A stretch of 64,000 nucleotides of DNA from an uncultured delta proteobacterium. GTDB taxonomy: Bacteria > Myxococcota > Myxococcia > Myxococcales > Myxococcaceae. Below are positions 55,638-60,351 of this stretch, one piece after another. The notes beneath the pieces are model-generated. The model did not search any database. It was not told the DNA's origin and saw nothing but the letters and a program-made list of their open reading frames with translations. The position numbers and the translations under genes were made by a program. The stretch covers positions 608,001-672,000 of the forward strand of contig CAVYSY010000032.1 of the NCBI GenBank assembly GCA_963771175.1. Direction: 5' to 3'. Positions within the stretch are counted from its first letter, which is position 1, and every line of letters begins with the position of its first letter.

Positions 55638-55777
55638 CCATCTCTCCTGACGTAGATGAAGCGGGATGCTCCTGAAACGTGCTGGCGAGGCGCACATATC
55701 GAACGTCATGCACCGCGTCAGAGGAGAATGTGCGGACCCGTGGCAGAGCGATGACGTGGCGCGAGTAGACAACGCGC

Positions 55778-56782
55778 ATGTTCCTCCACGCGCTCGGACA
55801 CTTCCACCCGGAGACGGTCATCACCAACGGGTTCCTCCAGGACCTCGGCCTGGAGACGGACGACGCATGGATCGTCGAGCGGGTCGGCATCCGCACCCGG
55901 CACACGGTGCTGCCGCTCGACTACATCCGCGAGACGCGCAACCGCGACGTTCGCGGGGCGCTGGAGGCGGCGCGGTACTCCAACGCGGAGACGGGCAGGC
56001 GCGCGGCGCTGATGGCGCTCCAACGCGCGGGACGCGACGTGAAGGACGTGGGCATGGTGGTCGCTGGCGGCTGCTCGCCCGACGAGTGCATTCCCGGCGG
56101 AGGCCTGCCGCATCGCCGAGGCACTGGGCATCGAAGCGCCCGTCGCTGGACCTCAACGCGGCCTGCTCCTCCTTCGGCGCCCAGTTGCACTTCCTCGCCG
56201 GAATGCGGCCGGAGCGACTGCCGGACTTCATCCTCGTGGTGAACCCGGAGAACTCCACCCGCGTGGTGGACTACTCGGACCGCTCCAGCTGCGTGCTGTG
56301 GGGCGATGGCACCAGCGCCGCGTTGCTCAGCCCGCGAATCCCCGGTCCCTGGCGCATCACCCAGACCCTGCTCGGCGGAGACCCCTCGGGCGCGGACAAG
56401 GTGAAGGTGCCGCGCGCCGGCCACTTCACGCAGCAGGGCTCGGCGGTGCAGACCTTCGCCATCAAGCGCGCGAGCGAGACCTTCCTCAAGCTGCGCGAGC
56501 ACTACCTCGCGGCCTCCCCGGGACGCACCGCGGAGGGCCTGAGCCTCATCGGGCATCAGGCGAACCTGCGCATGCTGGAGGCGGTGCAGCGGCGCACCGA
56601 GGTGCCCGATGCGCGCCACTTCTTCAACGTGGAGCACCGCGGCAACTGCGGGGCCTCGGGCGCGCCCACGGTGCTCTCGGAGAACTGGGACAACCCCGCA
56701 GGTGGGAGACGCCGTGGCGCTCGCGGTGGTGGGCAGCGGCCTCACCTGGGCAGGCGCCCTGCTCGAGCGCTGCCGCGCGTAG
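55778..56782 (+). CDS. 3-oxoacyl-ACP synthase III (FabH-like; apparent frameshifts near 56100-56150 and 56700)
   Basis: GIRTR, DLNAACSSF, LWGDG, HQAN, GNCGAS, GSGLTW. Confidence 0.9.
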
Positions 56783-56899
56783 CGTCAGTCACGAGCCACG
56801 AGACGCCACGAAAGGGATATTTTCCCCCGGGTCCGGAATCAGGAAGGATGCGCGGCCCGTCGGGCGGAAGCCCGTCCCCACCTCAGTCCCGGAGCTCTC

Positions 56900-58831
56900 A
56901 TGCCGTCCTGGCCCATCCTGTCCCGAGCGCTCGCGACCGCGGCGCTCCTTCCCGCGCTGGCGCTGGCCTCACCGCCCCCGGCCGAGAAGGAACCGGCGCC
57001 AGCCACGGCCGCGAAGCCCACCGCGCGCCCCTCGAAGCAATATGCCTACGAGCAGTTCATGGAGACGATGCAGATGAACGGGGTGGCCTTCACCTCGGAC
57101 GAGAAGAAGCTCGTCTTCTCGTCGAACCAGACGGGCATCTTCAACGTCTTCAGCGTGCCGGTGGGCGGCGGCAAGCCCACGCAGTTGACCCGCTCCACCA
57201 CGGACGGCTTCTCCCTCGTCGGCGCCTTCCCCCGGGACGGCCGGGTGCTGTACCAGCACGACCAGGGCGGTAACGAACTGCTGCACGTCTACGTGCGAAT
57301 GCCGGATGGCAAGGAGCGCGACCTCACCCCCGGCGACAAGCTGCGCGCCACGTTCCTCGACTGGAGCCAGGACGGGTCCGCCTTCTACGTCCTCGGCAAC
57401 GAGCGCGATGCGCGCTTCATGGACCTGTACCGCTACGACGCGAAGACCTACGCACGCACGCGGCTGTACCAGAACGACGGGGGCCATCGGGTGCGCGGCG
57501 TCTCTCCGGACGAGAAGTGGATCGCCCTGGAGAAGCTCCGCACCACCGCCGACAGCGACGTATGGCTCTACCACGTCGATACGAAGGAGCTGAAGCACCT
57601 GACCGCGCACCAGGGCACCGCGCAGTACTCGGTGGCCGACTTCGACCCGGCATCCGGTGCGCTGTACGTGCTCACCAATGACGGCGCGGAGTTCACCCGC
57701 GTGGTGCGCTACGCGCCGCCCGCCTGGACGCCGGAGGAGGTGGAGAGGGCGAACTGGGACATCCTCTCCACCACCTTCTCCCGGACGGGCGCGTACCGCG
57801 TCACCAGCATCAACGAGGATGGCCGCACCACCGTACGACTCCACGACATGAAGGCGGGCACGCAGGTGGCGCTGCCCCAGTTTCCCGAGGGGAACATCAG
57901 CTCAGTCATCTTCGCGCCTGGCGAGAAGCGCCTGGCCTTCTTCCACGAGGGTGACCGCTCGCCGCAGAACCTCTACGTCTACGACCTCACCACCCAGAAG
58001 GCCACCCGCCTGACGAGCACCCTCAGCCCCCACATGGACCCGGAAGACCTGGTCGAGTCGCGGGTGGTGCGCTTCAAGTCCTTCGACGGGATGGAGATCC
58101 CCAACATCCTCTACAAGCCGCACCAGGCCACGCCGGAGAACAAGGCGCCCGCGCTCGTGTGGGTGCACGGCGGCCCCGGAGACCAGGAGCGCAAGGGTTA
58201 CGCGGTGCTGATGCAGTACCTGGCCAACCATGGCTACGTGGTGCTGGGCATCAACAACCGCGGCAGCTCCGGCTACGGCAAGACGTTCTTCACCGCGGAC
58301 GACCAGAAGCACGGCCGCGAGCCGCTGCGCGACTGCCTGGAGGCACGCAAGTACCTGGCCAGCCTGCCGTACGTGGACGGCTCACGCATCGGCATCATCG
58401 GCGCCAGCTACGGCGGCTACATGACACTGGCCGCCCTGACCTTCCACCCGGAGGCCTTCACCGTGGGCGTGGACGTCATCGGCTTCTCCAACTGGCTGCG
58501 CATCCTGAAGGACATCCCGCCCTTCCGGGAGGACGCCCGCGAGGCCCTCTACCGCGAGGTCGGCGACCCGGTGAAGCAGGAGGCAATGCTGCGCGAGGTG
58601 TCCCCCTTCTTCCACACGGAGAAAATCCGCAAGCCCCTGCTCGTCGTCCAGGGAGCCAACGACCCGCACGCAGTGAAGGCGGAAACGGACGTCCTCGTCG
58701 AGGCCGTGCGGAAGAACAAGGTGCCCGTCGAGTACATTGTCTTCCCCGACGAGGGCCACGGCTTCAGCAAGAAGAAGAACGAGGTGGAGGCGTCCACGCG
58801 CATCCTCCGCTTCCTGGACCAGCACCTGTAA
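56900..58831 (+). CDS. S9 family (dipeptidyl/acylaminoacyl) serine peptidase, secreted
   Basis: Signal peptide, beta-propeller, HGGP, GSSGYG, GASYGG nucleophile, QGAND, DEGHG. Confidence 0.95.
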   Translation: MPSWPILSRALATAALLPALALASPPPAEKEPAPATAAKPTARPSKQYAYEQFMETMQMNGVAFTSDEKKLVFSSNQTGIFNVFSVPVGGGKPTQLTRSTTDGFSLVGAFPRDGRVLYQHDQGGNELLHVYVRMPDGKERDLTPGDKLRATFLDWSQDGSAFYVLGNERDARFMDLYRYDAKTYARTRLYQNDGGHRVRGVSPDEKWIALEKLRTTADSDVWLYHVDTKELKHLTAHQGTAQYSVADFDPASGALYVLTNDGAEFTRVVRYAPPAWTPEEVERANWDILSTTFSRTGAYRVTSINEDGRTTVRLHDMKAGTQVALPQFPEGNISSVIFAPGEKRLAFFHEGDRSPQNLYVYDLTTQKATRLTSTLSPHMDPEDLVESRVVRFKSFDGMEIPNILYKPHQATPENKAPALVWVHGGPGDQERKGYAVLMQYLANHGYVVLGINNRGSSGYGKTFFTADDQKHGREPLRDCLEARKYLASLPYVDGSRIGIIGASYGGYMTLAALTFHPEAFTVGVDVIGFSNWLRILKDIPPFREDAREALYREVGDPVKQEAMLREVSPFFHTEKIRKPLLVVQGANDPHAVKAETDVLVEAVRKNKVPVEYIVFPDEGHGFSKKKNEVEASTRILRFLDQHL

Positions 58832-58919
58832 GCAGAGACGGCGTGGTGAATCCTTCCAGGGCCGCCTTGGCTCTGACTCTCGGGGAGGCCGGCGCGGTCC
58901 GGCCCCCAGGAGGACGCAC

Positions 58920-59153
58920 ATGGCGAGGTCGACTTTGGAGGAGCGCGGGCTCACGGCGGCTGCGCGCTGGAGGCGCTGGGGAGGGATGGCGCTCGGTGGC
59001 GTCGTGGGCGCCGGCGTCCTCGTGGCGCTCGGGCAGGCGTATGCTCGCGTGGGGGGCACGTGAAGCATCCTGTGTCGCCCGGCGGTCGCCGGGCTCTATG
59101 GAGCCGTGATGGGCGCGCTGCTGGTGGCCAATGTTTGGAGGAGCAAGTCATGA
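58920..59153 (+). CDS. 77-aa two-TM membrane protein with an in-frame TGA at codon 48: candidate selenoprotein (U-S-I-L-C)
   Basis: AGGAGG RBS; frame stays open after TGA(59061-59063) as SILCRPAVAGLYGAVMGALLVANVWRSKS; final TGA overlaps the next ATG (ATGA); SECIS-like hairpin follows the TGA. Confidence 0.65.
59077..59094 (+). promoter_or_regulatory. Bacterial SECIS-like hairpin
   Basis: GCCCGGC-GGTC-GCCGGGC, stem starting 13 nt after the TGA; G-initiated GGUC loop 20 nt after the TGA. Confidence 0.6.
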
Positions 59154-59734
59154 AGTTTCGCTGGATGGGGTGGAGCGCCGCGTTGGCGCTGGGTGCGGGC
59201 GCGCTGGCCTGCGCGCCGGTCGCGCCGCGCGTGCTGGAGCCGGTGCCCCCGCCGCTCGCCGACAAGGTGAAGGCCGCCGAGGGCGCGATGACGACGCTGC
59301 AGCAGCGCCTCTTCCTGCGACTGTCGGAGGAGCTGGCGCGCGGGGGCCCCGCCTCGGCGGTGACGGTCTGCCGGGACGAGGCACAGGCGCTCACCGCGGA
59401 GGTGGCCCGCGAGCAGGGGCTCGAGGTGGGGCGAACCAGCCACAAGCTGCGCAACCCGAAGAATGCCCCCCGCCCCTGGGTGGCGCCGTACGTCGCCGCC
59501 GCCGAGGGCAAGCAGGCCGCCGAGGTGAAGCCGGTGGTGGTGGACCTGGGCGACCGCGTGGGCGTGCTCAAGCCGATTCCGATGGGGGCGCTGTGCGTCC
59601 AATGCCACGGCGCCGCTGACGCGCTCTCGCCCGACGTCGCACGCGGGCTGAAGGCGAGCTACCCGAGGGACGCCGCGGTCGGCTTCGCCCCGGGCGACCT
59701 GCGGGGATTCTTCTGGGCAGAGGTTCGCAAGTAG
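59150..59734 (+). CDS. DUF3365 (Tll0287-like) monoheme c-type cytochrome lipoprotein
   Basis: Lipobox ALAC; AVTVC, RTSHKLRNPKNAP, CVQCH, YP.D.A.GF..GDLRG. Confidence 0.9.
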   Translation: MKFRWMGWSAALALGAGALACAPVAPRVLEPVPPPLADKVKAAEGAMTTLQQRLFLRLSEELARGGPASAVTVCRDEAQALTAEVAREQGLEVGRTSHKLRNPKNAPRPWVAPYVAAAEGKQAAEVKPVVVDLGDRVGVLKPIPMGALCVQCHGAADALSPDVARGLKASYPRDAAVGFAPGDLRGFFWAEVRK

Positions 59735-59759
59735 GTGGGGCGCGGCCTTTGCGTTACGG

Positions 59760-60180
59760 GTGCCGCGCGCACAGCACGGTGGACCGGCTCCGCTCCAGAG
59801 GGAGGTTTTCGGCACCGGAACGCGGTTGCCCTCCGTCAGGCCGTTGTACACCGAGCCAGCAATCAAATACCTGAGCACCTGGGGGGCATTGTTGCTCTTC
59901 AGTTGCCGCCCATGCGCCACTCCCATATCGAGGACTAACAAGCATCCAGACTTCCAAGAGAGGACAGAGCTCATCCTCAATGTGTTTGTCCTCGGAATAC
60001 TTGTAGTTCATCGCGGCGCAAACGTCGTCGAGCCACGACCCATTCAATGTCATGTCGAACTGACCAATGCGTCCCGCCAGCTCGGACATGCGAAAACGGC
60101 TCATCTGGAGCGCGTCATGTTCCGTCAACGTTGGCGCCAGGAGCGTCTTCGGCTCAGCGAGTTGAGGGGGGCTTCAGTCT
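59760..60180 (-). pseudogene. Lower-GC broken ORF fragments of unknown origin
   Basis: Protein-like stretches in two frames (…DDVCAAMNYKYSEDKHIEDELCP… and …QVLRYLIAGSVYNGL…) without a clear start. Confidence 0.3.
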
Positions 60181-60323
60181 ACATGCGCCTCTGTTGTCAG
60201 TCGACGTTGATTATTGAATCAAGGTGGAGCTGAGTCGGAGAGTGGAACCGAGTCGGCCGGGCAGTCACAGGCTTGCCCCCTGGGCTGCTTTCCCGACTCC
60301 TCGTGCTGAGCCAGCCCTCTCGG

Positions 60324-60344
60324 ATTTATCGTGAAATGATAAAT
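60324..60344. promoter_or_regulatory. AT-rich 7-7-7 inverted repeat, candidate operator
   Basis: ATTTATC-GTGAAAT-GATAAAT, ending 7 nt before the ATG at 60352. Confidence 0.5.
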
Positions 60345-60351
60345 ACGTGAC

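Follow-up and report, generated by a model that had tools for sequence, protein, structure and literature searches.

Within a 64,000-nucleotide stretch of an uncultured delta proteobacterium (family Myxococcaceae by GTDB; contig CAVYSY010000032.1 of assembly GCA_963771175.1, positions 608,001 to 672,000, forward strand), which we call the window and whose first letter is position 1, we find that positions 58920-59153 very probably form one gene for a 77-residue selenoprotein, with selenocysteine (Sec) inserted at the UGA of 59061-63 by means of the hairpin at 59077-94. The internal TGA almost certainly encodes Sec, and the explanation as a whole, a selenoprotein together with a proposed redox role, we consider highly probable. 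The protein appears to represent a new selenoprotein family, in which a decoding mechanism of a known kind would serve a function that we can propose from sequence. The features on which this argument draws are collected in Table 1.

Table 1. Features of the putative selenoprotein gene and its surroundings in the window.
Feature	Coordinates	Strand	Basis
Selenoprotein gene (77 codons + stop; two-helix membrane hairpin)	58920..59153	+	Sequence, profile, 105-sequence alignment, AF2 model
5' leader with ribosome-binding site (RBS) AGGAGG at 58908-58913	58840..58919	+	Copy of thioredoxin-gene leader
TGA read as selenocysteine (U48)	59061..59063	+	Column is TGA in 28 loci, TGC in 14 loci
TGT = Cys52, candidate resolving cysteine of UxxxC	59073..59075	+	Invariant in 105-sequence alignment
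Apical hairpin of the selenocysteine insertion sequence (SECIS), 7-bp stem + GGUC loop, encodes (R)PAVAG	59077..59094	+	Fold, conservation, covariation
Tll0287-like (sCache_haem) c-type haem protein gene	59150..59734	+	PF11845, PDB 5B82; CxxCH at ~59594-59608

Gene layout and read-through product

The frame that begins at ATG 58920 stays open past the internal TGA as far as a second TGA at 59151-53; the next gene begins with the ATG at 59150, so that stop and start overlap (ATGA). The read-through product has 77 residues, of which U48 and C52 form a UxxxC motif. A preliminary description of this DNA had already placed the AGGAGG, the ATG, the internal TGA and the ATGA overlap, each at the correct coordinate, and had described a perfect GCCCGGC/GCCGGGC stem that starts 13 nt after the TGA and closes a GGTC loop, which we found exactly as described. 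Its further claim, that callers of open reading frames (ORFs) cut the gene short, agrees with the protein databases, where a word-based search returned a single match to the read-through protein, namely the window's own 47-residue ORF. With the 105-sequence alignment described below as input, AlphaFold2 (AF2) predicts helices at residues 13-43 and 54-76 and places U48 and C52 in the loop 44-53 (predicted local distance difference test, pLDDT, 69.5; predicted template-modelling score, pTM, 0.37). At 59060 a GTG that overlaps the Sec TGA stands in the Tll0287-like frame, 90 nt before the ATG at 59150; chosen as a start codon, it could conceal the second half of the selenoprotein gene from gene callers.

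Homologs pair selenocysteine with cysteine

We searched 61 genomes, the source genome and 60 relatives, with the read-through protein and obtained matches in 12, while none of the 17 same-genus genomes matched either this protein or a ten-member profile built for the family. Translation of the matching loci revealed that the TGA column holds TGA or Cys, followed by x-x-x-Cys-x-Pro and then by a second glycine-rich helix. The ten-member profile found matches in 80 of the 363 genomes of the order, and removal of 9 duplicate loci left 44 unique loci at 20 bits or more: 20 with TGA-xxx-C-x-P, 14 with TGC in the same column and 10 lacking CxxxCxP. Most of these 10 are of the DUF6132 type, and two are variant Sec forms with the same hairpin (L056, with U-x-x-C, and the DUF6132-like L065). 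A scan of ~185,000 species genomes for the pattern TGA-N9-TGY-N3 with 13 core bases returned 76 matches: 54 were unrelated GC-rich DNA and were set aside, and 22 were family members by hidden Markov model (HMM; E<1e-5). Judged by their peptides, these 22 comprise 16 already-known loci and 6 new Sec forms, 4 of the latter from metagenome-assembled genomes (MAGs) of Acidobacteriota. Sec forms total 28 loci (20 from the profile, 2 variants and 6 from the pattern) in Myxococcota and Acidobacteriota.

At the protein level, an exhaustive profile search of 1.84 billion representatives returned 130 proteins at E<=1e-3, and for 30 the match was as strong as E<=1e-10; 126 were aligned, four much longer proteins being left out, and CxxxCxP, that is, Cys at the U48 column, is present in 79 of the 126. 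The 105-sequence alignment has C/U48, C52 and P54 invariant and G30, G61 and G65 at least 90% conserved, and in the DNA alignment the GGn and GCn codons wobble in the same frame after the TGA. Because C52, P54, G61 and G65 are conserved, the stretch after the TGA is protein-coding in that frame. Homologs with Cys or TGA at position 48 and with conservation beyond it, which the preliminary description had anticipated, are therefore there in number (14 TGC and 28 TGA loci, besides the Cys-bearing database representatives). The closest protein, at 61% identity, comes from a Vicinamibacteria MAG, and the best Myxococcota proteins reach 48-49%.

If the TGA were a true stop, the locus would produce a 47-residue one-helix peptide with the rest untranslated, or it would be a decaying pseudogene. 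Gene callers do yield exactly the 47-residue product, and UGA is also the terminal stop of the gene. Nevertheless, we regard a true stop as highly improbable, since protein-level conservation extends over the 29 codons beyond the TGA, where C52 and P54 are invariant and third positions wobble, at 28 loci in two phyla, and since the column is Cys in full-length homologs; nor would a pseudogene keep an identical stop and a hairpin with compensatory changes (see below).

Two side observations concern the same column. Database proteins P0032 and P0066 have W there, and P0032 also has the PAVAG peptide found in Sec forms; most likely the W is a caller's reading of TGA as Trp, which would make both of them hidden Sec forms. 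In addition, a Sec form and a Cys form stand at separate loci in each of six genomes (G051, G355, G351, G352, G353 and G354), and therefore the two versions coexist as paralogs.

A uniform SECIS hairpin confined to the Sec forms

The hairpin consists of the stem strands GCCCGGC (59077-83) and GCCGGGC (59088-94) around the loop GGTC (59084-87), with 13 nt between TGA and stem. Folded alone it reaches -15.0 kcal/mol, and the 45 nt that follow the TGA have a folding energy of -21 kcal/mol (z -2.18, equalled by 4 of 200 shuffles). What takes the case beyond chance is the comparative evidence. CCCGGC-GGTC-GCCGGG lies at the same distance from the TGA in 20/20 profile-found Sec forms and in 0/14 Cys forms, one of which (L042) retains part of the hairpin sequence. 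Across 26 unique UxxxCxP Sec forms, 93.4% of the cells of the 7-bp helix are paired, and three of the seven pairs have undergone compensatory changes: GC 11/AU 5 at columns 26-43, CG 23/GC 3 at columns 27-42 and GC 25/UA 1 at columns 30-39. The covariation score was reached by 0 of 500 shuffles, with slid controls 27-58% paired, whereas the same columns in Cys forms are 48.0% paired, no better than their own slid controls. An earlier expectation that the hairpin would be conserved with covariation was thus borne out, and in the Sec forms only. At the protein level the hairpin encodes P-A-V-A-G/A, a peptide that is variable in the Cys forms and that the Sec forms have in common because the hairpin fixes it.

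As stated in the preliminary description, the SECIS of E. coli fdhF has GGUC in its loop. For bacterial SECIS elements more generally, PMC13188914 gives a model (bSECIS) with a loop of 3-9 nt, a stem of 4-16 bp, G within the first two loop positions, a distance of 16-37 nt from the UGA and a minimum free energy (MFE) of -7.5 kcal/mol or lower. The 4-nt GGUC loop, the 7-bp stem, the 20-nt spacing from UGA to loop and the -21 kcal/mol found here all lie within these published limits. In loop, stem, spacing and energy the element is therefore like the consensus given there, as in the E. coli fdh genes; it differs in being unusually uniform, with the same 16-nt core in all 28 Sec forms from two phyla.

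Selenocysteine machinery and sequence quality

The source genome contains all four components that the preliminary description had looked to find, namely tRNA-Sec, selA, selB and selD. Its tRNA-SeC (anticodon TCA) reaches 71.4 bits; SelA is broken across several frames (G000:C39:363984-365067), SelB lies in three pieces on one contig (G000:C31:280302-282214), and SelD (380.8 bits) has an in-frame TGA at the canonical '...HCAG-U-AAK' site. Because SelD contains Sec alongside tRNA-Sec, SelA and SelB, the organism already decodes UGA as Sec. With SelD and tRNA-Sec intact, the splits in SelA and SelB fit indel errors of the assembly, not gene loss, and they substantiate an earlier warning that the assembly has such errors. 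Across the order, SelA is found in 20 of the 21 genomes with a Sec form, and the 21st (G132, in 580 contigs) has a tRNA-Sec of 77.3 bits. The three member-bearing genomes in which SelA is absent (G032, G045 and G060) all carry Cys forms; tRNA-Sec scores of 51.2 bits in two SelA-less genomes are ambiguous.

An assembly whose SelA and SelB are broken over several frames could in principle also have turned a TGC or TGT into the TGA. Contigs from three studies (X1, X2 and X3) cover 59061-63, agree with the window at the codon and run through the gene without a gap, so the independent data for which the preliminary description had called give TGA three times. They differ from the window at 9-17 other places, none of them within 59055-59117, and yet read TGA; because the three studies agree, the TGA is not an artefact of an error-prone assembly. 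It also stands in the same column at 27 other loci in other genomes, and we hold a sequencing or assembly error to be extremely improbable. Run X7 gave no cover at the codon, and a further 200-nt contig of X3 (depth 2.8), only part of which belongs to the stretch, covers 59102-59132 with two insertions.

These data also bear on the idea that ribosomes pass the UGA by near-cognate insertion of Trp, Cys or Arg in place of Sec, with the hairpin merely slowing termination. The W in the column of P0032 and P0066 would be in line with this, though it most likely reflects the caller's convention described above. We judge selenium-free readthrough very unlikely: loop, stem, spacing and energy of the hairpin all fit the SelB-type SECIS model; the genome has the complete Sec machinery and puts it to use for SelD; the codon stands in place of a conserved Cys, as is classic for Sec/Cys pairs; and every one of the three member-bearing genomes without SelA has the Cys form.

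Family placement and novelty

No Pfam or NCBIfam model recognises the read-through protein, and the NCBIfam selenoprotein models likewise match 0 of the 105 family members. The preliminary description had compared the protein to DUF6132 (PF19628), and this likeness turned out to be real but distant. On the one hand, the two share their size, two glycine-rich helices and the '...G-T-C ... P ... LYGA..G' layout, and hhalign matches them at 99.1% (E 5.6e-19, 70 columns), the DUF6132 set having been retrieved with the family's own profile; U48 aligns with the invariant second Cys of DUF6132. On the other hand, the window's protein falls short of the PF19628 gathering threshold of 23.2 bits, with no hit at E<=1, and the partner Cys stands at +4 here (CxxxCxP) and at -5 in DUF6132 (CxTGxCP). 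DUF6132 accounts for 44 of the 126 proteins retrieved by the family profile; PF19628 scores 15.9 bits with one Cys homolog and 26.4 bits with the CxxxCxP fusion P0087; and the nearest Atlas clusters of a natural Cys homolog are DUF6132 (score 0.89), which we take as a lead only. Profile comparison thus indicates common ancestry with DUF6132 through a shared invariant Cys, in a set that is not independent of the family profile, and by these comparisons the family is a borderline CxxxCxP sister branch of DUF6132. L065 (genome G166) has its TGA, at locus position 1576, in the column of the invariant Cys ('GCG-U-GGFSNPAVAG'), and Sec forms may also exist within DUF6132 proper.

Full-text searches on DUF6132, together with a 119-family inventory of selenoproteins from 2026, gave no record of Sec forms for DUF6132, and such searches on selenoproteins and SECIS elements of Myxococcota, on Anaeromyxobacter selenoproteins and on TsoA returned no account of the family; the unvalidated novel selenoprotein candidates that Deng et al. 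2026 reportedly obtained from groundwater MAGs might include it. None of the 119 families in the inventory (PMC13188914 Table 1) has PF19628 or is a two-helix membrane protein, and none of the 11 selenoproteins counted in Anaeromyxobacter dehalogenans by a 2006 census resembles the family. The only one of the 119 entries with U-x-x-x-C spacing is TsoA (LULAXC motif, NF045695; PMC13188914). Compared by its NCBIfam model alone (144 positions, cut-off 170 bits), TsoA has no match in the source genome, nor in control genomes, and 0 of the 105 family members match that model at E<=0.01. Sec at a membrane segment in place of Cys is also known from MerT-like proteins (PF02411, C/SxxU), the SO_0444-type Cu/Zn efflux transporter, YeeE/YedE and SaoP (PMC13188914). 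These have no sequence relationship to the family and are larger transporters, whereas the proteins described here are bare two-helix hairpins of 60-80 residues. MerT (PF02411) is absent both from the E<=1 hits of the window's protein and four homologs and from the families hit by the 126 relatives.

A predicted haem protein gene overlaps the probable selenoprotein gene

The downstream gene is, by profile and template matches, one for a stand-alone Tll0287/sCache_haem protein. Its product scores 48.8 bits with PF11845, against a cut-off of 24.1, and matches PDB 5B82 (Tll0287) at E 2.3e-7 with the CxxCH motif and the 'VC' Cys column aligned; the predicted haem motif C149-x-x-C152-H153 is invariant in 5 sequences. 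The ATGA overlap suggests that this gene is translationally coupled to the Sec gene. The same two genes with a stop/start overlap recur in three Acidobacteriota MAGs, and in 3/3 Acidobacteriota loci with enough flank cydA follows the Tll0287-like gene on the same strand. Across the family, neighbours vary by clade and include DNA pol I, DivIVA and PAS kinases; MscS-cNMP channels; a pyridoxal phosphate (PLP) enzyme of Cys/Met metabolism; and a major facilitator superfamily (MFS) protein with an AMP-binding enzyme. According to a 2026 preprint, stand-alone sCache_haem proteins look redox-active and are without known gene partners, and fusions of Tll0287-like and Cytochrom_C domains are reported there from Flavobacteria only. 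In a Vicinamibacteria MAG (G364), the stop-to-stop frame after the Sec TGA (L166:1177-2301, minus strand) encodes a Tll0287-like domain followed by a Cytochrom_C domain.

Origin of the cassette

The two-gene cassette is specific to the source genome within its genus, and it was probably acquired and joined to a copied thioredoxin leader. Window positions 58840-58939, comprising leader, RBS, ATG and ~6 codons, are 80% identical over 101 nt to G000:C46:210276-210375(-), where the leader precedes the gene of a WCAPC thioredoxin; these are the sole two copies in the genome. In 17/17 congeners DNA similarity breaks off where the S9 peptidase gene ends (query 2-529), and tblastx found no match downstream of that break in five loci. 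The X2 contig parts from the window shortly before 58842. On its left side the leader copy has an edge that coincides with the end of synteny and with the departure of X2, which suggests promoter capture and co-regulation with thioredoxin. The GC content of the cassette is 0.70-0.79, and that of its flanks 0.63-0.69 and 0.55-0.60. As to the donor, a tree built by a quick method from 66 columns is poorly resolved and identified none; the Sec label requires at least 4 changes on it, a single origin also being possible, and the window's protein groups weakly (approximate likelihood-ratio test, aLRT, 80) with one Vicinamibacteria and two Myxococcota MAGs.

Two nearby segments deserve mention. Between the cassette and a response-regulator/kinase gene, positions 59750-60350 have a GC content of 0.55-0.60 compared with ~0.70 around them and hold a minus-strand ORF at 59754-60128 (124 aa); this segment may be the right edge of the acquired DNA. 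Upstream, a long ORF at 55666-57273 has a ketoacyl-synthase-III-like middle and two ends that resemble out-of-frame, Arg/Pro-rich translation, and it shares bases with the beginning of the S9 peptidase gene; the gene here is probably frameshifted in the assembly.

Proposed function

Mechanistically, we envisage that a ribosome reaching the UGA at 59061-63 would meet the hairpin at 59077-94. With its GGUC loop beginning 20 nt downstream of the UGA, the hairpin would recruit SelB with Sec-tRNA(Sec), so that selenocysteine would be inserted and translation would continue to the TGA overlapping the start of the next gene. The product would be a helical hairpin of two glycine-rich membrane helices, with U48 and C52 in the short connecting loop, where they could form a selenenylsulfide/selenol-thiol couple at the membrane face and exchange reducing equivalents with thioredoxin-fold or haem proteins. 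For the source genome and for Acidobacteriota, we propose as this partner the Tll0287-like haem c protein translated together with the hairpin, and in the source genome the copied thioredoxin leader would drive the cassette. By the positive-inside rule, the termini are predicted to be cytoplasmic and the Sec loop periplasmic.

We put forward this redox role of a U48/C52 couple tentatively, as a possible mechanism. Redox chemistry is suggested, first, by the replacement of an invariant Cys with Sec beside a fixed partner Cys; second, by P0087 and P0102, in which CxxxCxP hairpins are fused to CxxC thioredoxin domains; third, by the leader shared with a thioredoxin gene; and fourth, by the coupled Tll0287-like haem protein gene, a pairing kept in Acidobacteriota. 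By analogy, the arrangement recalls CcdA/DsbD relays and thioredoxin-fused membrane oxidoreductases, with which it would share a Cys pair beside Pro in a membrane segment, thioredoxin-fused relatives and a haem c neighbour. Relays of the CcdA/DsbD type have 6-8 helices and two half-sites, whereas the hairpin has two helices and one site and would have to form oligomers to work as a relay; the likeness is an analogy of design. A more specific and improbable version, which we offer as speculation, is that the hairpin could be a minimal membrane selenol/thiol relay, the smallest known, and the partner of stand-alone Tll0287-type (His/Cys-ligated) haem c proteins, passing or sensing reducing equivalents between cytoplasmic thioredoxin and a periplasmic haem protein upstream of cytochrome bd.

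A serious rival, which we nonetheless consider unlikely, is that the selenoprotein handles soft metals or chalcogens (Hg, Cu, Cd, selenide or sulfide), binding them or passing them through the membrane as the Cys pairs of MerT/MerF-type proteins do, instead of taking part in thiol-disulfide exchange. Cys or Sec at i and i+4 beside Pro in a glycine-zipper hairpin would resemble membrane metal sites, some members weakly hit glycine-zipper families, and the inventory holds Sec forms of MerT-like, Cu/Zn efflux and YeeE/YedE transporters (PMC13188914 Table 1). Yet there is no Pfam or NCBIfam match to MerT or to any transporter family, no metal-resistance gene adjoins the gene in the 40 loci examined, and the fusions to thioredoxin, like the thioredoxin leader, speak for a redox role.

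Less probable still, in our view, is an accessory or assembly subunit of cytochrome bd or of a haem c protein, CydX-like, in which Sec would protect or mature the partner. The order of Sec gene, Tll0287-like gene and cydA on one strand in the three Acidobacteriota loci with enough flank would suit such a role, as would the stop/start overlap with a haem protein gene. However, the cydA context is limited to one subclade, cydA lying on another contig in the source genome, most family members adjoin unrelated genes, and CydX-type subunits have one helix and are not known to have a Cys pair.

Several points weigh against our preferred reading of a redox selenoprotein. That the protein contains selenium and that the gene is expressed we have so far inferred from sequence, and the RNA runs contain 0.07-0.11 of the words. 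The energy of the hairpin is by itself only moderately unusual (the z of -2.18 above); 6 of the 26 sequences in the covariation analysis were found by a pattern that demands the hairpin core (columns 28-40), the scan leaving free columns 26, 27 and 41-43, which hold most of the covariation; and the shuffle statistics are overstated because the sequences are related. The co-occurrence of SelA with Sec forms is a weak test, since SelA is present in 317 of the 363 genomes, a tally that includes one genome flagged unpublished (G274), which enters into none of the other claims. The confidence of the AF2 model is moderate only, and the topology is a prediction. In the fusions, the thioredoxin domain follows helix 2, which would put it on the face opposite the Cys loop if the hairpin spans the membrane. 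Finally, just 4 of the 40 unique loci have the Tll0287-like neighbour, the source genome has its cydA elsewhere, and a scan of 69 flanking ORFs found no neighbourhood conserved across the whole family.

Implications

The family, mostly from uncultured Myxococcota and Acidobacteriota, adds to the bacterial selenoproteome a bare two-helix membrane hairpin that is neither thioredoxin-like nor a large transporter. Its annotation illustrates how selenoproteins are systematically mis-annotated, the present one being cut to 47 residues in the sole database record found, and the uniform SECIS that fixes PAVAG offers a simple DNA signature for further members as well as a clean case of an RNA structure constraining a protein sequence. 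The uncharacterised DUF6132 superfamily has one invariant Cys, which the presence of Sec in its place marks as the functional residue, and thioredoxin, the Tll0287-like haem c protein and cytochrome bd can be named as candidate partners. If the relay were real, selection would favour Sec where a fast couple is needed or one that withstands over-oxidation, and the hairpin would be the first genetic partner for stand-alone sCache_haem proteins.

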